From contig DASTHI010000046.1 of NCBI GenBank assembly GCA_035718275.1, positions 54,348 to 118,347 of the forward strand: a DNA stretch of 64,000 bases, read 5' to 3'. Made by a program: the position numbers and the translations under genes. The notes beneath the pieces are model-generated. The model was not told the DNA's origin and did no database searches. It saw only the letters and a list, made by a program, of their open reading frames with translations. The stretch is from Pseudolabrys sp. (lineage in GTDB: Bacteria; Pseudomonadota; Alphaproteobacteria; Rhizobiales; Xanthobacteraceae). Below are positions 1 through 9,317 of this stretch, piece after piece (position 1 is the first letter of the stretch; each line of letters opens with the position of its first letter).

Positions 1-84
1 GGCGTCACTGATGTCCGGCGCAAGGAGGAAAAGATCCGCCGAGGTGACCGCGTCATTGCAGGCAGGCAACCTACTGTCGGATAG
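1..84 (+). CDS. 3' end of an unidentified CDS running in from the left edge (GVTDVRRKEEKIRRGDRVIAGRQPTVG*)
   Basis: Frame 1 is open from base 1 to TAG at 82-84 and is followed by an AT-rich promoter region. Too short to identify. Confidence 0.3.
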   Translation, partial: GVTDVRRKEEKIRRGDRVIAGRQPTVG

Positions 85-119
85 CAAAGGCTCGGCCTTA
101 ATCAATTCGCGACACTTAC

Positions 120-133
120 TTGATTTTGATCAA
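120..133 (+). promoter_or_regulatory. FNR/FixK-type box TTGAT-TTTG-ATCAA
   Basis: Perfect TTGAT-N4-ATCAA upstream of the 239..691 CDS. Confidence 0.85.
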
Positions 134-238
134 ATCCGAAAGACAGGTTGAGTCTTATATAAAATATGCCATTTCGCGCTGGCGCGCGGCGGTCTACGGC
201 CGGACGAAGTTGTGCATCCGAGCGTGATGGAGATCAAC

Positions 239-691
239 ATGGCCTATCAGCACCAACAATCCCATCACCCTGCGCCCTCGATGATGAATGCCGTTGCAGA
301 TTGGATAACGCGGTATCGCACTGCCGTGAACCAGGAGAGGGAGCTCGCACAGATCGGCCCGAATGAAGTGGCTGCCATAGCAAAGGATATTGGCATATCG
401 AGTCTTGAACTTCACGAGCTCGCGCACAAGGGAGCGAAAGCGGGCGCACTTTTGAAGGAGCTGCTTGTTGCACTGGGCGTCGACCCGGAGGCTCTCGCGA
501 AAATGGATCGGCGCATCGCGCGCGACATGCAATGGCTGTGCATTCATTGCGAAAACTCAAGACGGTGCAGGCACGAGCTTTCAGCCGGGACAGCCGCTGG
601 CAACTTCCGGGCATATTGTCCCAATGCGATCACGATCGAGGAGGTTTTCGGCCTTGAGAATCCTTCGGGTGGACCGACGGTAAAGAGCTAA
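239..691 (+). CDS. DUF6455-like Cys-rich protein
   Basis: ATG 239 with GGAG SD. The C-terminal C-x2-C-x5-C...CPN pattern (CIHCENSRRC...YCPN) matches my recollection of the alphaproteobacterial DUF6455 family. Confidence 0.65.
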   Translation: MAYQHQQSHHPAPSMMNAVADWITRYRTAVNQERELAQIGPNEVAAIAKDIGISSLELHELAHKGAKAGALLKELLVALGVDPEALAKMDRRIARDMQWLCIHCENSRRCRHELSAGTAAGNFRAYCPNAITIEEVFGLENPSGGPTVKS

Positions 692-712
692 AGAAGGCAC
701 CAAACTGACCCT

Positions 713-2059
713 CTAAACGGCGACAGAGTGACGTGCGCGGGCCTCTGTCAAATATTCATCAAAAGCCGCCGCGATCAGGCGCAAATACGGACGCCCCTTC
801 TCATTGACCCGGATGTGGTTCTCCTCGATACGGACAAGGTCATCCGAGACAAAGGGCGCGAGGCCGCCGAGTGCGGGCTCGAAGTATTCCTGCGAATAGT
901 TGTATTCGTCGGCGATCGAGCCGACATCGCAATCAAGATGGCACATCAGTTCTTCGATGACTCGGCCGCGCGCGCGATCGGCAAGTGAAAGCTCAAGTCC
1001 GCGCACGGTAGCCAGACGATTGGATGTGATGGCGCGCGAGTATCCCGCCGTATCGGCGGCATTCTGCACGAAGCCTTGTGGCAGACGACCGATCGCCGAT
1101 GCACCGCACCCGATCAAGGCGTCGGCATCATCGGTCGTATAACCCTGAAAATTCCGATGCAGCTTGCGCCTCCGTACGGCCTCGGCCAAGCTATCGGAGG
1201 GTGCCGCGTAATGATCGAGCCCGATCGGCTCGTATCCCAGCGCAGTCAACGTATCATGAGCTGCAATGGCCTGGGCGAACCGGGCAGTGGAGTCGGGCAA
1301 AGACGACTGGTCGAGAAGCCTCTGATGATGCTTGAGCCAGGGGACATGAGCATAGCCAAAGACGGCAAGGCGTTGCGGTTCAAGTTCATGTACAAGTGCT
1401 ACGCTTCGGCGAATGTCGTCCACTGTCTGATTCGGCAGTCCATACATGAGATCGATATTGATATCGCGAATACCGGCTTCGCGTAGACTGCTGACGGCGT
1501 TGCGAACGATCGAAAACGGCTGGACGCGGCCGATTGCCTGCTGGACATGCGCAGACAGATCCTGAACGCCAAGACTTGCCCGGGTCACACCGATCTCGGC
1601 CAGCGCGCTCACGAGTTCTGTTGTGACGTAGCGCGGGTCGAGCTCGAATGCATGCTCTTCCAATGAGGTCAGGTCAAACCGGACATCGAGTTGCGTCACG
1701 AGATCGCGCAGGCGCTCCGGACCGGCGATCGACGGAGTACCGCCACCCCAGTGAAGATGAACGATCCGCCGACAGCCCATATTGTCCGCGAGCAGATCGA
1801 TTTCCTTAAGCAGCACGTCGACGTAAGCATCGACCGGCGCGAACCGGCGAGTCGCCTTCGTGTGGCACCCGCAATAGAGACATATCTCCTTGCAGAACGG
1901 GACATGAAAGTAGAGCGACACCGTGTCTGATTTCGACAGGTGGCCGAGCCAGGATGCGTATGTGCGCTCGCCTACCGAGGAAACGAAGTGCGGCGCCGTC
2001 GGATAGGACGTGTATCGCGGCACGGCCTTTTGGACAGAGGCGCTGATGTTCGGAAGCAT
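713..2059 (-). CDS. hemN: Oxygen-independent coproporphyrinogen III oxidase (radical SAM)
   Basis: 448 aa. Motifs PRYTSYPTAP, LYFHVPFCKEICLYCGC (CxxxCxxC), HWGGGTPS, DLMYGLP, RNFQGY. Confidence 0.95.
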   Translation of the reverse strand: MLPNISASVQKAVPRYTSYPTAPHFVSSVGERTYASWLGHLSKSDTVSLYFHVPFCKEICLYCGCHTKATRRFAPVDAYVDVLLKEIDLLADNMGCRRIVHLHWGGGTPSIAGPERLRDLVTQLDVRFDLTSLEEHAFELDPRYVTTELVSALAEIGVTRASLGVQDLSAHVQQAIGRVQPFSIVRNAVSSLREAGIRDINIDLMYGLPNQTVDDIRRSVALVHELEPQRLAVFGYAHVPWLKHHQRLLDQSSLPDSTARFAQAIAAHDTLTALGYEPIGLDHYAAPSDSLAEAVRRRKLHRNFQGYTTDDADALIGCGASAIGRLPQGFVQNAADTAGYSRAITSNRLATVRGLELSLADRARGRVIEELMCHLDCDVGSIADEYNYSQEYFEPALGGLAPFVSDDLVRIEENHIRVNEKGRPYLRLIAAAFDEYLTEARARHSVAV

Positions 2060-2092
2060 AAAATACTTATGCGGGTCGCCAGGAACCGTTCA

Positions 2093-2106
2093 TTGATCAA
2101 AATCAA
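2093..2106 (-). promoter_or_regulatory. FNR/FixK-type box TTGAT-CAAA-ATCAA upstream of hemN
   Basis: Perfect consensus, centred about 40.5 nt upstream of the hemN ATG. Confidence 0.9.
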
Positions 2107-2173
2107 CTTGGAATACAAAGCGCGAACGGTGACGCCGTTTTAGTCGCGCGCATCAATCGTGCGCTGGCGCGCC

Positions 2174-2356
2174 TCACACTCTTTTGTCGCTGGGGAAAAC
2201 GCCCTGCGTAATTTCAATGCGACGAAGCTCATCAGCCTTTCGCATGTATTGATCGCCCTTTTCGCGCAATTTTTCGCTCACGTCAGGATTTGAGACCCGA
2301 TTGGACTCTGCGTAGCAAGTCTTCGCAAGCTCAAATAGCTCCCTGACTTTCAGCAT
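2174..2356 (-). CDS. Small (60 aa) helical hypothetical protein
   Basis: ATG with a purine-rich upstream sequence, protein-like composition and its own FNR box at 2416-2429. Confidence 0.65.
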   Translation of the reverse strand: MLKVRELFELAKTCYAESNRVSNPDVSEKLREKGDQYMRKADELRRIEITQGVFPSDKRV

Positions 2357-2415
2357 GGCTCAGCTTCCATAAACGTCAGCCAAAGCCATGTTCGGACTGC
2401 CCTTCGGCTGCGGCC

Positions 2416-2429
2416 TTGATCCAAATCAA
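2416..2429 (-). promoter_or_regulatory. FNR/FixK-type box TTGAT-CCAA-ATCAA
   Basis: Perfect consensus. Class II spacing (-41.5) gives a TSS near 2381, 25 nt before ATG 2356. Confidence 0.85.
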
Positions 2430-2480
2430 TCGAAAGCGTTTTCGACCAGTACGGAGTCCAGTCCGGAATATTGAGCCCTC

Positions 2481-2494
2481 TTGATTTTGCTCAA
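2481..2494 (+). promoter_or_regulatory. FNR/FixK-type box TTGAT-TTTG-CTCAA (1 mismatch)
   Basis: Near-consensus box about 41 nt upstream of a two-hairpin non-coding element. Confidence 0.65.
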
Positions 2495-2528
2495 TGCCGT
2501 CCGTTGCCATGGACGTTAGTTGTTAACC

Positions 2529-2622
2529 CAGCCTGGAGCTTTTCCGAAGCGTCCTCTCCGCTCCAGGTCGCCAATGACTGGACCCTGGCCGAATCTTCAA
2601 GGCTCGGCCGGGGTCTTTTTTT
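2529..2622 (+). ncRNA. Candidate FNR/FixK-activated small RNA (~94 nt)
   Basis: Starts at class II distance from the FNR box. 8-bp stem CCTGGAGC(2532-2539)/GCTCCAGG(2560-2567) with a loop carrying anti-SD-like CCTCTCC, then a 12-bp terminator stem and T7. No plausible CDS here. Confidence 0.55.
2581..2622 (+). terminator. Rho-independent terminator
   Basis: GACCCTGGCCGA(2581-2592)/TCGGCCGGGGTC(2604-2615), one G-U pair, followed by 7 T. Confidence 0.8.
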
Positions 2623-2650
2623 GTCGCGCAAGCCTTCCACTCGGCCAATC

Positions 2651-2664
2651 TTGACTTTGATCAA
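2651..2664 (+). promoter_or_regulatory. FNR/FixK-type box TTGAC-TTTG-ATCAA
   Basis: Near-consensus box upstream of the hemerythrin ATG 2730. Confidence 0.75.
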
Positions 2665-2729
2665 GGATCACAAAATCGCATTGCCTTTACTCGGCGCAGA
2701 ACAGCAGGCAAAAAAATCGGATTTGGCGG

Positions 2730-3158
2730 ATGCGCAGCGTGATCGTCAGGCCATTCAGACAAAGGCTTCTGCCGGAGCGTCTCGGGCATGAGGTGATTGA
2801 CTCTGATCATATGGAAATTTCGGACTGCTGGTTTCGCCTCGTCAACTGCGCACCTCTCCAGTTCCCATTCCTTATCGCCCGCATGAAGAGGCTCATGGAG
2901 AAACATTTCGCGCGCGAAGCGGAAGTGATGAAGATTTTCGACAGAACTCTATGTGTGTGTCATCAGAGAGAGCATGACGCCCTCCTTCGATTTTGCGACA
3001 GCGCTGCGAAGGCAAGCTCACACGATTGGAAACGTTCACAAGCCATGTTGCGTCACGATTTCCCCAGACAAGTTCGCGAGCACATCATCTGCAGGGATCA
3101 ACTCCTGGTTCTGTGCGTCAATACGGATGGCGGCATAGCGTCGTGCGGAACGGCTTGA
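2730..3158 (+). CDS. Single-domain bacteriohemerythrin
   Basis: All seven di-iron ligands are in register: IDSDH, HFARE (HxxxE), HQREH (HxxxH), HIICRD (HxxxxD). Confidence 0.85.
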   Translation: MRSVIVRPFRQRLLPERLGHEVIDSDHMEISDCWFRLVNCAPLQFPFLIARMKRLMEKHFAREAEVMKIFDRTLCVCHQREHDALLRFCDSAAKASSHDWKRSQAMLRHDFPRQVREHIICRDQLLVLCVNTDGGIASCGTA

Positions 3159-3205
3159 GCCGAAGTTGAAAGGCGGCACTCCGGCGAGACATCGAGCTTC
3201 CTAGC

Positions 3206-3219
3206 TTGATCTACATCAA
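3206..3219 (+). promoter_or_regulatory. FNR/FixK-type box TTGAT-CTAC-ATCAA
   Basis: Perfect consensus upstream of the cytochrome b561 gene. Confidence 0.85.
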
Positions 3220-3394
3220 GGCCACCCAACCGCTCTCGTTTAACGAAAGCGAAGAACAAAGACTGACTAGGCCTTCGCGGCAGAGCGATTGCACTGTGTT
3301 CTTCTGCCGTTCAATCTGCTTACATGTCCATGGGAATCCCTAAAAGAATTTCTATCCGATAGAGAGACCTGCACTGCCAACGCCGGCAGACCGT

Positions 3395-4135
3395 TTGGAT
3401 GCACCTGAAATAGACAAAATGAATCCCGCTCAATCGCACATTCCCACGGAGGTTTATTTTGATTTTCTGGGCGGCGCGATTCCAATTCATTGGAATTATC
3501 ACGCCCTACTGATGGTCGGGATCTGGCTCGTTCTCGTTCCAATCTGCATCATCACCATCAGATACGGCAAGCCGAGACCTACTCCCTTCGGCATTAGAAA
3601 GGAGATCCGGCTCAGGCATATCGAATGGTGGTGGTTCAGTGTTCACAAATTCGGCTTCTATATAGCAATCGGCCTGTCGCTCGCCGGCGGGGCTGTCGCA
3701 TTGGCCGTTAGTCGAGGCTTCAGCGGCTCCGTGCACTCAATATTTGGTATTGCGACGATCGCCCTGGGATGCCTGCAGATTGTCTCTGCCTGGCTGCGCG
3801 GTACGCACGGCGGCAGATATTACTTCAAAGCCGATCCCAATGATCCCTCTACGTGGCGTGGCGATCACTTCGACATGACCCCGCGCCGGCGAAAGTTCGA
3901 GGCCTATCATAAGACTGCAGGATATTTCGCCGGCTTTTTCGCGGTGGGTGCGATGGCGTCCGGTTTGATGCAGTACCCTATGCCAATTCTGGCGGGAGTC
4001 ATTTTCGTGGCTGCATTCGTCATTGTTGGCGTGTGCATCTTTCTTGAATACAAGGGTTTGCGATACGACGGTTATCGTGCCGCCTTCGGCAATAATCCGG
4101 ATCACCCGTACAACAAAGCCCGCAGGGATCTGTAA
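3395..4135 (+). CDS. Cytochrome b561 family di-heme membrane protein (start uncertain, possibly ATG 3419)
   Basis: Multiple TM segments with four His in b561 register: HALLM, FSVHK, SVHSIFG, AYHKTAG. Confidence 0.75.
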   Translation: MDAPEIDKMNPAQSHIPTEVYFDFLGGAIPIHWNYHALLMVGIWLVLVPICIITIRYGKPRPTPFGIRKEIRLRHIEWWWFSVHKFGFYIAIGLSLAGGAVALAVSRGFSGSVHSIFGIATIALGCLQIVSAWLRGTHGGRYYFKADPNDPSTWRGDHFDMTPRRRKFEAYHKTAGYFAGFFAVGAMASGLMQYPMPILAGVIFVAAFVIVGVCIFLEYKGLRYDGYRAAFGNNPDHPYNKARRDL

Positions 4136-4295
4136 GCTGCGGCATCGCCGCTGCCCACATGCTCCGGGGCGGCGCCGTACAACTTATGTTCATGCCCGAA
4201 ATGCCGTGGAGGCGCTTGCGGTCGGCGCCATGAAGCTTTAAGCCCGCCCGAACAGGCTACGAGCGAGCAGGATCCGAACATTTGCACGCGGGATC

Positions 4296-5510
4296 ATGAC
4301 GAAGACGAAATCCTCCTCACCCGCCGGTTCCAGCACATCCTGGGTAGAACCCAAGCCGACGGCACTTCTGGTGCTGGCCGACGGCACCGTGCTTGAGGGT
4401 TTTGGACTTGGCGCAACGGGGCATGCGGTCGGAGAGGTCTGCTTCAATACGGCGATGACCGGCTATGAGGAAATCCTCACCGATCCGTCCTATGCGGGGC
4501 AGATCATCACATTCACCTTCCCCCATATCGGCAATGTCGGCACCAACGAGGAAGACATCGAAACCGTCAATATGGCGGCCACGCCCGGTGCGCGCGGGGT
4601 GATTATGCACAGCGCGATCACCGCCCCCTCGAACTACCGTGCTACGCGCCATCTCAATGACTGGCTGAAGGCACGCGGCATCATCGGGCTCGGCGGCATT
4701 GATACGCGCGCATTGACTTCGCTGATCCGCGTCAAGGGTATGCCGAACGCGGTCATCGCACATGAGCCATCGGGGAAATTCGACCTGCCCGCCCTCAAAA
4801 AGGAAGCGAAGGACTGGCCGGGACTCGTCGGTATGGATCTCGTGCCGATGGTGACGAGCGGCCAACGCTTCACTTGGGATGAGATGCCCTGGGTGTGGAA
4901 CGAAGGTTATTCACGTCAGACCAATCCGGAATTCCATGTCGTCGCGATCGATTACGGCATCAAGCGCAACATCCTGCGCCTGCTGGCCGCCACCGGCTGC
5001 AGGGTGACCGTCGTGCCGGCGAAGACCACGGCGGATGAGATCATGGCCCTCAAGCCGGACGGCGTGTTCTTATCCAACGGGCCGGGCGACCCGGCGGCCA
5101 CCGGCGAATACGCAGTCCCGGTCATAAAAAAGCTGATCGACTCCGGCACCCCGACCTTCGGTATTTGCCTAGGTCACCAGATGCTCGGCATCGCGCTCGG
5201 TGGCAAGACCATCAAGATGCATCAGGGCCATCACGGCGCCAATCATCCGGTCAAGGATCTCACAACCGGCAAGGTCGAGATCACCTCGATGAATCACGGC
5301 TTCGCAATCGATAAGAATACGTTGCCCAAGAACGTCGAGCAGACGCATATCTCGTTGTTCGATGGATCGAATTGCGGACTAGCGTTGAACGACAAGCCGG
5401 TGTTCTCGGTACAGTACCATCCTGAAGCGTCGCCCGGGCCCCGCGATAGTCATTATCTCTTTACTCGCTTTACCGAGATGATGCGGCGGGCCAAACAGAA
5501 GATTGCGTAG
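4296..5510 (+). CDS. carA: Carbamoyl-phosphate synthase small subunit
   Basis: GEVCFNTAMTGY, LSNGPGDP, FGICLGHQ (catalytic Cys), QYHPEASPGP. Confidence 0.97.
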   Translation: MTKTKSSSPAGSSTSWVEPKPTALLVLADGTVLEGFGLGATGHAVGEVCFNTAMTGYEEILTDPSYAGQIITFTFPHIGNVGTNEEDIETVNMAATPGARGVIMHSAITAPSNYRATRHLNDWLKARGIIGLGGIDTRALTSLIRVKGMPNAVIAHEPSGKFDLPALKKEAKDWPGLVGMDLVPMVTSGQRFTWDEMPWVWNEGYSRQTNPEFHVVAIDYGIKRNILRLLAATGCRVTVVPAKTTADEIMALKPDGVFLSNGPGDPAATGEYAVPVIKKLIDSGTPTFGICLGHQMLGIALGGKTIKMHQGHHGANHPVKDLTTGKVEITSMNHGFAIDKNTLPKNVEQTHISLFDGSNCGLALNDKPVFSVQYHPEASPGPRDSHYLFTRFTEMMRRAKQKIA

Positions 5511-5542
5511 CACGGTCGACGGCCACAAACCTGTTCACGTTT

Positions 5543-5568
5543 GGAACCGATCGTGATCGTCCTAGGTT
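5543..5568 (+). promoter_or_regulatory. Putative EcfG/RpoE2-type general stress promoter GGAAC-N18-GTT
   Basis: GGAAC at 5543-5547 and GTT at 5566-5568, just upstream of the cupin start. Confidence 0.45.
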
Positions 5569-5580
5569 TGTCGTTTGCTC

Positions 5581-6096
5581 ATGTCGATGCCTCTCGCCTT
5601 CATGTTCAAGGACGACGGCAAGGTGCCGAATAATCCGGTGCTGCCGGCACTCATCTACAAGGCCGCGATTGCGTTGAGCGCGCAAGATCCTGCCAGCACT
5701 ATCGAAAATATCTTTGCGAAGAACGGCTGGGGCCGTGGCCAGTGGCGCAACGGCATCTACCCTTTCGTGCACTACCATTCGATGATCCACGAGGCGCTCG
5801 GCATCGCGCGCGGGCGGGTGCGGGTGCAACTCGGCGGCCTTGCCGGCGAGACGTTCGATTTCGCGGCCGGGGATGTCGCCGTGCTACCTGCTGGCACCGG
5901 ACATCAGCGCCTGTCAGGGAGCCCTGATCTCCTGGTGATCGGAGCCTATCCCGCCGAGGGCACATATAACCTCTGCCGCGGCGATAATCCGGCCGATCGC
6001 GAGAAGGCACTCGTGACGATTCCAAGAGTGCCGGTACCTACCAGCGATCCGGTGCTCGGCAAGGACGGCGATCTGCCGAAGGCGTGGCGACGATAG
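5581..6096 (+). CDS. Cupin domain protein (YjlB-like)
   Basis: PNNP.LP, HYHS..HEALG, GD...LPAGTGH and GAYP motifs. Confidence 0.8.
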   Translation: MSMPLAFMFKDDGKVPNNPVLPALIYKAAIALSAQDPASTIENIFAKNGWGRGQWRNGIYPFVHYHSMIHEALGIARGRVRVQLGGLAGETFDFAAGDVAVLPAGTGHQRLSGSPDLLVIGAYPAEGTYNLCRGDNPADREKALVTIPRVPVPTSDPVLGKDGDLPKAWRR

Positions 6097-6109
6097 CGCA
6101 CCCGTTACT

Positions 6110-6201
6110 CCGTCATTCCCGCGCAATAGGAATCTCCCCTGTCCGATCGACAATCATCTCGATGTCTGCTCCTCGGTGCCCGCTTTCGCGGGGATGGACG
6201 G
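6110..6201. repeat. CGTC-tagged REP-like palindromic element (degenerate)
   Basis: CCGTCATTCCCGCG at 6110-6123 pairs with CGCGGGGATGGACGG at 6187-6201, with internal CCCGCTTTCGCGGG. It resembles the GTCATTCCCGCG...GCGGGAATGAC repeat family. Confidence 0.55.
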
Positions 6202-6256
6202 ATACTGTGCTAATACCGCCCAAGTCTGCACGATAGAAAGCGCCAGCGAGCGAGCC

Positions 6257-6955
6257 ATGAGCGACTGGGTCAACTTCTACGACTTCAAGCATTCGGTGAT
6301 CTATGTGAATGCACGTCACCGCGACGTGCACTATCGAACGATTGCCGAGGACATCCGCGCCTATGTGCCGTCATCGGACGCATATGTGCTGGACTATGGA
6401 TGCGGCGAGGCGACATCGGCCGATCTCGTCGCCGACGCATGTGCCCAATTGGTGCTGGTAGAAGCGGCGCCCAACGTGCGCGCCTCACTCACCATGCGCT
6501 ATGCGGGGAATCCGAAAATCACGGTCGTCGCCGCCGAGCAGGCTGCGGGCCTGCCGAGGTCTTCGTTCGATCTTATTGTCATGCATTCGGTCGCGCAGTA
6601 CCTGACGCCAGCAGAACTCGATCGCCTGCTTGCGATCTTCCACACGCTACTCAAGCCGGATGGACTCTTTATTCTCGGCGATGTCGTGCCGCCGCATCTT
6701 GCGGCACCAGCCGCCGCGCTGTCGCTGCTGCGCTTCGGCGCTGCCAACGGCTTCTTTTGGGCCGCGGCTTTCGGGCTGGCGCGAATCTTCGCTTCCGACT
6801 ACCTGCGCCTGAAAAAAACGGCGGGGCTGTCACATTATACCGAGGCCGCCGCGCTCGAACGTTTGCGCAAAGCCGACTTCAGGGCCAGGCGTGCAGAGCG
6901 GAATATCGGCCATAACCAGTGGCGCATGACCTTTCTTTGTCGGGCATCCGCCTAA
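6257..6955 (+). CDS. Class I SAM-dependent methyltransferase
   Basis: VLDYGCGEA motif I and FDLIVMHSVAQY. ATG 6257 is preferred because the longer start lies inside the REP. Confidence 0.85.
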   Translation: MSDWVNFYDFKHSVIYVNARHRDVHYRTIAEDIRAYVPSSDAYVLDYGCGEATSADLVADACAQLVLVEAAPNVRASLTMRYAGNPKITVVAAEQAAGLPRSSFDLIVMHSVAQYLTPAELDRLLAIFHTLLKPDGLFILGDVVPPHLAAPAAALSLLRFGAANGFFWAAAFGLARIFASDYLRLKKTAGLSHYTEAAALERLRKADFRARRAERNIGHNQWRMTFLCRASA

Positions 6956-7020
6956 TGAAGGTCGGGCAGAACCGCTGACTGCTCGGCCAGCCGTCAGACA
7001 AAAAATTTTCCCTGATCACC

Positions 7021-7066
7021 CAACTAGACGTTGACTAGCGGAAGCCGCCTCGCACTAAATGTAGAT
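7021..7066 (+). promoter_or_regulatory. Tandem NrdR boxes overlapping a sigma70 promoter (TTGACT-N17-ACTAAA)
   Basis: Cores CTAGACGTTG (7024-7033) and CTAAATGTAG (7055-7064) are 31 bp apart, the typical NrdR tandem spacing, and cover the -35 and -10. Confidence 0.7.
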
Positions 7067-7067
7067 G

Positions 7068-7245
7068 TCACGGTCTCTCGATTCTGGTCGAGAGCTAAGA
7101 GGGAAACCGGTGAGCTGACGGCAAAGCCGGTGCTGCCCCCGCAACTGTAAGCGGCGAGTGTCTGCCATCATTGTCACTGGTGCGCGAATGCACCGGGAAG
7201 GCCCGGCAGACGCAGCGACCCGCGAGCCAGGAGACCTGCCGTGAT
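7068..7245 (+). ncRNA. Cobalamin (AdoCbl) riboswitch
   Basis: Hallmark segments AAGAGGGAAACCGGTG, GCCGGTGCTGCCCCCGCAACTGTAAG, GTCACTG, CCGGGAAGG, GAGCCAGGAGACCTGCC, located upstream of a B12-independent RNR. Confidence 0.95.
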
Positions 7246-7355
7246 CGAACGAACGTCCTCGGGCGGGGTGCCTGGTGGGTCGCTTGCCGCCGAGGTGCGC
7301 TCGGTTTCCTGCAAGTCATCCACTAGGCCCGTGCCCCAACATCGCGGGGTTGCCG

Positions 7356-9317
7356 ATGTCATTGTCTTACGATTTCGATCTTCATGGTCATCTCGTTTCC
7401 GGAAGCTTGCCGCGGAAAAAGACGCAGGCAAAGCAAGACCCACCGAAACTGCATGTGGTGCCCCCCGCACGTGAAGCCGCCGCGTCCAAAGCGGTTAGGT
7501 CTCCGCTTCCGGCGCCGCTCTTGCCGCCACCACGGCCCTCGGATCTCGTTTTGGATCGCCGCCGCGACGACCTTCTGACGGCGTTCGGCAAGCTCACGCT
7601 CTCGGATCGTTACTTGCTGGCGGGCGAAAACTTCCAGGACATGTTTGCGCGCGTGTCGTGCGCTTTCGCTGACGACGTTGCGCACGCCCAACGCTTGTAC
7701 GACGCCATGTCTCGGCTCTGGTTCATGCCGGCCACGCCTGTGTTGTCCAATGGCGGCACGACGCGCGGACTGCCGATTTCCTGCTTTCTGAATTCCGTTT
7801 CCGACTCGCTGAAGGGAATTGTCGACACCTGGAATGAGAATGTCTGGCTTGCATCAAACGGCGGCGGCATCGGTACATTCTGGGGGCGCGTGCGCTCGAT
7901 TGGCGAGAAAGTGAAGGGCGGCGTGACATCCGGCATCATCCCCTTCATTCACGTCATGGATGGTCTGACGCTCGCGATCAGCCAGGGATCCCTGAGGCGC
8001 GGTTCGGCTGCCGTCTATCTCGACATCCACCATCCGGAGATCGAGGAGTTTCTGGAAATTCGCAAAGCCTCCGGTGACTTCAATCGCAAGAGCCTGAATC
8101 TGCACCATGGCATCAACGTCACCGATGAATTCATGCAGGCTGTGGGTGCAGGCACCAAATTCGCCCTGCGAAGCCCTAAGGACGGCGAGGTGATCCGCCA
8201 AATCGATGCTCGGCAGCTCTGGCAGCGCATTCTTGAAACGCGCCTACAGACGGGGGAGCCATATCTCCTGTTCATCGACACTGTGAATCGTGCCTTGCCC
8301 AAGCATCAACGCGAGCTTGGCCTCACAGTCACGACATCCAACCTGTGCAGCGAAATCACTCTGCCTACGGGGCCTGATCATCGGGGCGAGGAACGAACGG
8401 CTGTCTGCTGTCTGTCTTCGCTCAATCTGGAAACCTGGGATCAATGGAAGGACGAGCAACTGTTTATCGAAGATGTAATGCGCTTCCTCGACAACATACT
8501 GACGCATTTTATTACGGTCGCGCCAAGTGAAATGAAGCGGGCGCGCTACGCCGCGCTGCGGGAGCGCTCGGTCGGTCTAGGCGTAATGGGATTTCATTCA
8601 TTCTTGCAAGGCAAGGGTGTTCCAATGGAAAGTGCCGCCGCCAAGGCGTTCAACCTGGCAATGTTCCGCAAAATCCGCCGCGACGCCGACGCAGCATCGA
8701 TCGCTCTGGCGCGTGAGCGCGGCCCCTGCCCCGACGCGCTGGAACGCGGCATCACGGCTCGCTTCAGCCACAAGATTGCTGTCGCGCCCACCGCCTCGAT
8801 CAGCATCATCTGTGGCGGCACGAGCGCCTGCGTCGAGCCGATCCCGGCCAACATCTATACGCACAAAACGTTGTCGGGTTCGATCTCGGTCCGCAATCCT
8901 CATCTCGCGAAGATTCTGGCCGACAAGGGGGCGGACAGTCAGGCTGTGTGGCAGTCCATCATTGAGCATGAAGGCTCAGTCGCTCATCTCGGTATGCTGT
9001 CGGAGCAGGAGAAGGCAGTGTTTCGCACGGCATTCGAAATAGATCAGCGTTGGATCGTTGAGCTTGCCGCCGACCGCGCTCCGTTCATTTGCCAAAGCCA
9101 GTCGATCAATCTCTATCTGCCGGCAGACATCGATAAATGGGACCTGCACATGCTGCATTGGACAGCGTGGAAGCGCGGGGTGAAGAGTCTTTACTATTGC
9201 CGCTCGAAGTCCATCTCGCGCGCCGGATTTGCAGGGAAAATCCCGAAGACAGAAGCCGCCAACCGACAATCCTCACTGTCTCGGACCGACTATGAGGAGT
9301 GCCTTGCATGCCAATAA
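7356..9317 (+). CDS. nrdA: Class Ia ribonucleotide reductase alpha subunit (short type, no ATP cone)
   Basis: PATPVLSN, LPISCF, GGGIG, SNLCSEI (thiyl Cys), APTASIS, SLYY, C-terminal ECLACQ. Confidence 0.93.
   Translation: MSLSYDFDLHGHLVSGSLPRKKTQAKQDPPKLHVVPPAREAAASKAVRSPLPAPLLPPPRPSDLVLDRRRDDLLTAFGKLTLSDRYLLAGENFQDMFARVSCAFADDVAHAQRLYDAMSRLWFMPATPVLSNGGTTRGLPISCFLNSVSDSLKGIVDTWNENVWLASNGGGIGTFWGRVRSIGEKVKGGVTSGIIPFIHVMDGLTLAISQGSLRRGSAAVYLDIHHPEIEEFLEIRKASGDFNRKSLNLHHGINVTDEFMQAVGAGTKFALRSPKDGEVIRQIDARQLWQRILETRLQTGEPYLLFIDTVNRALPKHQRELGLTVTTSNLCSEITLPTGPDHRGEERTAVCCLSSLNLETWDQWKDEQLFIEDVMRFLDNILTHFITVAPSEMKRARYAALRERSVGLGVMGFHSFLQGKGVPMESAAAKAFNLAMFRKIRRDADAASIALARERGPCPDALERGITARFSHKIAVAPTASISIICGGTSACVEPIPANIYTHKTLSGSISVRNPHLAKILADKGADSQAVWQSIIEHEGSVAHLGMLSEQEKAVFRTAFEIDQRWIVELAADRAPFICQSQSINLYLPADIDKWDLHMLHWTAWKRGVKSLYYCRSKSISRAGFAGKIPKTEAANRQSSLSRTDYEECLACQ

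Follow-up and report, generated by a model that had tools for sequence, protein, structure and literature searches.

Introduction

Low-oxygen control of gene expression in rhizobia and their relatives has been described almost wholly as a matter of transcription, with FixLJ-FixK, FnrN and NifA as the regulators. Small RNAs that add to such a response are described from other bacteria. FnrS of Escherichia coli and Salmonella (RF01796) is a short RNA that is transcribed in anaerobiosis from an FNR-dependent promoter and ends at an intrinsic terminator; it is Hfq-dependent and represses many mRNAs that are dispensable without oxygen (PMC8139620). Rhodobacter sphaeroides has PcrZ, whose induction at low oxygen requires PrrA and FnrL and which, together with genes belonging to the same regulon, makes up an incoherent feed-forward loop (PMC8139620). 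As a kind, activator-dependent, Hfq-type small RNAs that act on Shine-Dalgarno sequences are already well known. In AbcR1/2, NfeR1 and the alpha-r families, CU-rich loop motifs pair with ribosome-binding sites, often those of mRNAs for ABC-transporter binding proteins. A search of full-text literature, the coverage of which was incomplete, returned no small RNA linked with a FixK box, either in Bradyrhizobium or in other alphaproteobacteria.

The unit described here occupies positions 2481-2622 of the window, by which is meant the whole 64,000-nucleotide stretch of Pseudolabrys sp. DNA that was analysed; the genome assembly comprises 53 contigs and 4.14 Mb and is 99.8% complete. The unit is known from sequence alone, and its proposed logic and its size are those of FnrS, but the two differ in lineage and genomic context and have no match in sequence or structure (Rfam, E up to 10). 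The proposed activator is FixK-like or FtrB-like, in contrast to the iron-sulphur FNR of the FnrS system, and the proposed seed is a CU tract borne on a loop, unlike that of FnrS. Since it does not match the RF01796 model, the unit is not of the FnrS family and is likened to it in its proposed working only. PcrZ is alphaproteobacterial, as is the window unit, for which low-oxygen induction is predicted only. Control of PcrZ by FnrL may be indirect, whereas the window unit has a box at the class II position; additionally, the targets of PcrZ are photosynthesis genes, with which the present case is not concerned, and the window unit has no Rfam match. With AbcR, NfeR1 and the alpha-r families the unit has the CU loop in common, and three genes for periplasmic binding proteins and one for a permease are found among its best seed matches. 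However, it matches none of their models, has a single CU loop rather than two or three, and has a different regulator.

The original prediction had recognised no known alphaproteobacterial family in the unit, and this was borne out by Rfam release 15 (4,227 families, including AbcR, the alpha-r families and PcrZ), in which the unit had no match at E up to 10. The Infernal comparison that had been proposed as a check gave no match to a cis-element either. Across window positions 1-8000 the same search returned only a cobalamin riboswitch, and a second scan of the unit's own locus (L020) and of related units, again at E up to 10, found no match. The riboswitch itself lies at 7054-7257 (+) and is a full-length RF00174 element of 134.5 bits against a gathering score of 31.5.

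Results and discussion

Architecture of the unit

The unit reads along the plus strand from a FixK/FNR-type box (box 2; 2481-2494, +; TTGATTTTGCTCAA) to a run of U residues. An FNR-like box had been predicted at 2481-2494, and the sequence there is indeed a perfect TTGA-N6-TCAA dyad, the proposed activator site of the small RNA. The centre of the box falls at 2487.5, and adding the 41.5 bp typical of class II FNR/CRP-type promoters gives position 2529, two bases ahead of hairpin 1; on this spacing the transcription start is predicted at 2527-2530 (+). Hairpin 1 would thus begin where a class II FNR-type promoter with its box centred at -41.5 should start transcription, or a few bases past that point. 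A candidate -10 element, TTAGTT (2516-2521, +), is suggested by the sequence 22-27 nt past the end of box 2, and TTATAT, TTTACT and TTTAAC stand at the equal position relative to the boxes at 120, 2651 and 3206. The small-RNA promoter is accordingly a putative one, deduced from box 2 and its spacing.

Hairpin 1 (2531-2568, +), as defined by folding and alignment, has a 9-pair stem and a 20-nt loop. Its arms, GCCUGGAGC (2531-2539) and GCUCCAGGU (2560-2568), form eight Watson-Crick pairs and a terminal G-U pair. An earlier description of this stem as a perfect 8-bp GC stem was right as to the eight Watson-Crick pairs, but two of these are A-U and only six G-C, and the G-U pair is additional. The loop (2540-2559) has GCGUCCUCUCC as its 3' end. 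Within its conserved 3' half lies the pyrimidine-rich tract UCCUCUCC (2552-2559, +), the proposed anti-Shine-Dalgarno seed. A single-stranded linker follows (2569-2579, +; ACUCAAU in most homologues) and may serve as an Hfq site. The unit ends in an intrinsic terminator (2580-2622, +), for which folding gives a 13-pair stem, some of the pairs being wobble pairs, and a 3-pair tip, followed by U7 (stem-loop 2580-2616, T7 2616-2622). A 12-bp terminator with T7 had been expected; the terminator and T7 were both found, and the stem proved to have 13 pairs and the tip a further three.

Folding of the RNA from 2520 to 2625 yielded -44.1 kcal/mol (z = -4.1), a value matched by none of 200 dinucleotide shuffles. 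A simple terminator scan picked up the inner part of the terminator only, and it is no proof by itself, because it counted no more terminators in the region than in shuffled sequence. When the genome was searched for a box combined with a strong terminator, this unit was the sole convincing result, and the other two matches look spurious.

Overall, positions 2481-2622 are best explained as an independent gene that encodes a non-coding RNA of about 90-95 nt (approximately 2529 to 2622, +). At low oxygen, an activator of FixK/FNR type would bind the box about 41.5 bp upstream of the start and recruit RNA polymerase; the transcript would begin just ahead of hairpin 1 and stop at the terminator, which would act constitutively. 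The released RNA would display the pyrimidine-rich tract in its large hairpin loop, while its short single-stranded linker and U tail would suit Hfq. Pairing of the tract with the purine-rich ribosome-binding sites of other mRNAs would then lower their translation, so that a repressing, post-transcriptional arm would be added to the low-oxygen regulon. Transcription and its start site, the activator, the oxygen response, Hfq dependence, action in trans and the targets are all predictions. Judged on its features, the unit most likely represents a new family of FixK/FNR-type-activated anti-Shine-Dalgarno small RNA.

Conservation and covariation

Nucleotide BLAST of the unit against 60 relatives returned no copy, and a covariance model was needed. 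Homologues were located by tracing the hemerythrin-like gene that lies downstream: the unit was present at the matching place in genome G008, in a Pseudolabrys metagenome-assembled genome, and in 11 of 12 metagenome contigs. The hemerythrin-like proteins of these loci are 68-76% identical to that of the window (70% in G008 and 75% in the metagenome-assembled genome).

A structural alignment of eleven sequences comprises two helices. In RNAalifold these 11 sequences form hairpin 1 and the terminator, with 21 pairs, five of which have changed on both sides; the shuffle mean was 1.1, and the observed number exceeded that of all 500 shuffles. Of the aligned cells, 97% are paired (96.6% in hairpin 1, 98.3% in the terminator), and pairing falls to 56-58% if the partners are slid by one column. 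Covariation resides almost wholly in the terminator, where 4 of 11 pairs have changes on both sides, and hairpin 1 changes only from C-G to U-G. The covariance analysis of homologues that had been suggested as a check therefore revealed compensatory changes above the shuffled level, nearly all of them in the terminator and almost none in hairpin 1. As its changes are wobble changes only, with almost no true covariation, the conservation of hairpin 1 could reflect a constraint on sequence rather than on structure. The G-U pairs and the U run fit the plus strand only, and the plus strand folds better by 4.5 kcal/mol on average.

Conservation is distributed unevenly along the unit. In a comparison of three genomes, the boxes are 79-100% identical and the 3' arm of hairpin 1 is 78-100% identical, and the terminator is also conserved. 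Within the loop, identity is 78-100% in the 3' half and 9-36% in the 5' half, and the linker and the spacers reach 27-45% and 27-51%, respectively (39-51% for the spacers beside box 2). The tract in the loop varies by exchange of C and U only (CCUCUCC, CCUUCCC, CCUUCUC, CUUCCCU and CUUCUCCC), and the loop as a whole spans from about 12 to 25 nt among the homologues, its other half being variable in length. Hairpin 1 is predicted in all ten homologues folded. A loop exposing a pyrimidine-rich tract had been proposed, in agreement with which most of the ten predicted folds place the CU-rich tract in the loop of hairpin 1, although it is partly paired in some of the minimum-energy folds. Taken together, it is very probable that the unit is a conserved structured RNA element under selection.

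Could the transcript instead be the mRNA of a small protein? Four homologues have an ATG in the loop, opening frames of MSF(P/S)LQD-like or MSSLLQE type. The ATG is missing from the window and from five other homologues, however, and no ribosome-binding site precedes the frames, which extend across the terminator and are not maintained. Loop-length differences are not multiples of three, and one homologue (L008) has stops in most frames and no frame of more than eight codons. A small protein-coding mRNA was rejected on these grounds and is an exceedingly improbable reading; with neither a conserved ATG nor a kept frame among the homologues, the earlier statement that the unit has no credible ORF holds. 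A repeat or mobile element was likewise rejected, the unit being single-copy in the genome.

The putative promoter and the low-oxygen island

All 10 distinct homologues have TTGAT as the left half-site of box 2. The right half-site is TCAA in two, GCAA in five, GTAA in two and ATAA in one, such that it departs from TCAA in 8/10 and is neither TCAA nor GCAA in 3/10. TTGA-N6-GCAA fits the consensus of Bradyrhizobium FixK2, whereas right halves GTAA and ATAA do not. In every homologue hairpin 1 begins 33-37 nt after the end of the box. With regard to a class II FixK/FNR promoter, the predicted dyad is present, and FixK-like and FtrB-like proteins with an E--SR recognition helix are encoded in the genome. 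The former scores 248 bits against the FixK model and has a box upstream of its own gene; the latter scores 283 bits, above the cut-off. Ten more Crp/Fnr-type proteins and Hfq (113 bits) are encoded as well. A Crp/Fnr-type regulator with a box of its own is found on the same contig, 36 kb upstream of the low-oxygen island described below.

Across the whole genome (4.14 Mb) there are 79 TTGA-N6-TCAA dyads, compared with about 26 expected from composition, and 12 of these are on this contig. The 64-kb window has six against 0.85 expected, all in its first 3.3 kb, and none of 100 shuffles of the window reached six. These six FixK/FNR-type boxes, between positions 120 and 3219, are crowded into 3.1 kb, where they serve five or more genes that are small or unknown. 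Judged from its boxes, the segment 120-3219 is a compact low-oxygen island. Box 120 precedes a DUF6455-like frame (212-691), box 2093 precedes hemN (713-2059, -), and box 3206 precedes a gene for a membrane protein of 246 aa (3395-4135). The hemN ATG is 34 nt from its box (TTGATCAAAATCAA, 2093-2106) and thus at the expected class II transcription start, so the hemN mRNA may be leaderless.

The unit had been placed between two other FNR-controlled units, and both were found. Upstream and divergent, as the constant neighbour on that side, is a 60-aa frame without a family match (2174-2356, -), behind box 1 (2416-2429, TTGATCCAAATCAA; TTGAGCAAAATCAA and similar forms in relatives). Box 1 lies 54-89 bp upstream of box 2 in the relatives. 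Used as a query against the genome contigs, the 60-aa protein found no relatives. The constant downstream neighbour is the hemerythrin-like gene (2730-3158, +; 142 aa), behind box 3 (TTGACTTTGATCAA, 2651-2664, +), which is its proposed promoter site. Its product scores 20.2 bits against Pfam Hemerythrin and E = 7e-9 against the NCBIfam hemerythrin domain, both below the cut-off.

Two further features of these neighbours were observed. In five loci of relatives (L004, at about 1030-1135, -; L006; L007; L008; and L016), the divergent transcript carries, ahead of the 60-aa frame and overlapping with it, a frame for a hydrophobic peptide of about 33 aa (MRQPELHLAVRLIILGIPVAFILASMFLHRRQC). The window, L010, L011 and L014 lack this peptide frame and retain no more than a remnant of its 3' end. 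The hemerythrin-like gene, for its part, is without a canonical Shine-Dalgarno sequence (2700-2732 and the homologous loci). Its AUG is abutted in 9 of 10 loci by GGYUYCYYYCA, a conserved CU-rich tract like that of the small-RNA loop, and the window deviates here with GGAUUUGGCGG.

Such dense packing admits an explanation without any functional RNA, in which the hairpins insulate or terminate between adjoining FixK promoters and box 2 is auxiliary to a neighbour's promoter. The boxes are 54-89 bp apart and palindromic, and FixK promoters are thus potentially bidirectional; it is the terminator and not hairpin 1 that has the strongest covariation. However, insulation alone leaves unexplained the conserved hairpin 1, the loop tract that varies by transitions only and the constant spacing of 33-37 nt, as well as an orphan sibling unit in another genus (see below), and it is considered rather improbable. 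A discrete small RNA expressed from its own promoter is, by comparison, probable.

Relationship to the hemerythrin-like gene

On a cis-acting reading, the unit would be a leader that tunes the hemerythrin-like gene: some of the transcription that starts at box 2 would pass the terminator and enter the gene, with or without release of a small RNA. Wherever the unit occurs in the window's genus, that gene follows it directly on the same strand. Furthermore, the L008/G142 lineage has lost the box of the hemerythrin-like gene, the ATG of which comes about 45 nt after the terminator, and for want of its own box the gene must there rely on read-through or on an unseen promoter. The loss of this box, together with the strict linkage of the module, keeps a cis role or a dual role alive. 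There is reportedly a precedent for an attenuator-derived small RNA in rnTrpL of Sinorhizobium, which derives from a leader.

In contrast, in all other distinct unit-bearing loci a perfect box still stands ahead of the gene, downstream of the terminator. No fold competes with the strong terminator, and the loop pairs with the start region of the gene no better than shuffles do. The gene also occurs without the unit, both in L015 (68% identity), where it has its own box, and in G095 and G098, the homologues of which are 53-54% identical. Additionally, the sibling unit of the other genus faces a convergent gene. A cis-acting leader is therefore regarded as unlikely. An earlier reservation was that the hairpins might belong to the 5' UTR of the hemerythrin gene; the gene's own box in most loci and the lack of an antiterminator go against it, and the L008/G142 lineage, without that box, and the strict linkage to the module leave it some room.

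Two narrower versions of such a role were rejected. The first was an attenuator or riboswitch: in 9/10 homologues hairpin 1 is unchanged when the 3' arm of the terminator is blocked, and with that arm withheld the 5' arm is essentially unpaired, at a cost of 20-29 kcal/mol. As the homologues have no competing antiterminator fold, an attenuator reading fails. The second was an obligatory part of the hemerythrin gene, given that the gene mostly has its own box and that L015, G095 and G098 lack the unit.

Search for targets

Action in trans by the loop tract was examined with several pairing tests. Duplexes between the loop and the hemerythrin-like start regions of 10 loci were no better than those of shuffles. 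Nor did the divergent mRNA behave like a target that co-evolves with the loop: cognate combinations did not outperform non-cognate ones (p = 0.67), and a 9-nt identity between the 5' arm of the G008 small RNA and the divergent 5' UTR (GTCTTGGAG) did not generalise. In a genome-wide duplex screen of 5,367 candidate start regions, the real loop was indistinguishable from shuffled loops, with 35% of the start regions at or below -14 kcal/mol for the real loop and 35-49% for shuffled ones. The best seed matches were to three periplasmic binding-protein genes, a branched-chain permease gene, an HbpS-like gene and a glycosyltransferase gene; these predicted matches are leads only and are statistically the same as chance. 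A site in hemF was rejected as a target, since it falls inside the coding region. The exact seed varies from species to species, contrary to what is usual where the targets of a regulator are conserved.

One lead of another kind concerns the non-conserved half of the loop, UUUUCCGAAGCGUC, to which the start region (-18 to -5) of a hisC-like aminotransferase gene outside the window (contig C18:38204-39307, -) is complementary over 14 nt, with one G-U pair. By a rough estimate, chance alone would produce about 0.06 such matches, and this match is a lead only.

A structured RNA that acts in some other way would agree with the absence of a genome-wide target signal. It might sequester, as a decoy or sponge, a protein or RNA with affinity for pyrimidine-rich tracts, or it might regulate the two linked genes only. 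Its strict co-inheritance with the module points in the same direction, as does the presence of the similar CU-rich tract GGYUYCYYYCA 5' of a hemerythrin-like AUG that has no canonical Shine-Dalgarno sequence. There is, however, no known partner, the pairing tests were negative for both linked mRNAs, and the anatomy is that of ordinary base-pairing small RNAs; a decoy or module-bound regulator is thus quite unlikely. As to the self-contained architecture of a trans-acting small RNA that had been claimed for this locus, the self-contained part was upheld, in that the unit is conserved whole and without a reading frame, but target prediction was no better than in controls. The full mechanism, namely a trans-acting, anti-Shine-Dalgarno small RNA that is activated by a FixK/FNR-type protein and probably works with Hfq, is given an even chance from the features of the unit and its homologues.

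Distribution and a sibling unit

With the covariance model, the unit was detected in 4 of 201 species genomes of the genus, together with one unrelated weak match. The carriers besides the window's genome are G008, G142 and G153, and the four are exactly those genomes of the genus whose hemerythrin-like protein is at least 70% identical to that of the window. Only weak matches were obtained in 401 genomes of the family. A degenerate pattern scan of all species genomes gave chance hits in GC-rich genomes only, and the first 80 of these had no model match.

A sibling unit was identified in 7 of 151 genomes of one uncultured Xanthobacteraceae genus (loci L041-L047 and L075; 1508-1655, +, in L041). 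Like the window's unit, it has a perfect box (TTGATCCATATCAA) spaced about 33 nt from a hairpin, a hairpin loop that is mostly CU-rich, of CCUCCC type (AAUCCUCCCUG), and a terminator of similar sequence (GGCCUUGACCGAACC). Unlike the window's unit, it has the stem CGGCUC/GAGCCG, almost no linker and no adjoining hemerythrin gene, and it scores only 32-34 bits against the covariance model of the window's family. The sibling unit sits between a histidine-kinase gene and a convergent LigD-like gene, and because the latter faces it, it is not a 5' leader. By analogy, this orphan shows that units of such architecture can stand alone. Its terminator module is repeat-like and present in four or five copies per genome, and part of the similarity may therefore not be due to common descent.

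If the unit is expressed as predicted, the FixK cascade gains a repressing post-transcriptional output. A broader proposal is that this is the first small RNA to be placed directly in a FixK-type regulon, that it is an anti-Shine-Dalgarno riboregulator with its seed on a loop, which arose within a three-part, horizontally patchy low-oxygen module (small protein, RNA and hemerythrin-like protein), and that together with the sibling it points to a recurrent post-transcriptional arm of FixLJ-FixK in soil alphaproteobacteria. This proposal is put forward tentatively, as somewhat less likely to be right than wrong. The unit itself has a limited reach, being confined to a few, mostly uncultured Pseudolabrys-like lineages, and if expressed as predicted it would constitute a compact promoter-RNA cassette for study.

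A different small-RNA-like unit was observed in another genome of the window's genus (G156; locus L023, 1498-1600, -). Two of its hairpin loops contain CCUCCC, and its terminator ends in U7; it is without a box and scores 30.6 bits against Rfam ErsA, below the gathering score of 50.
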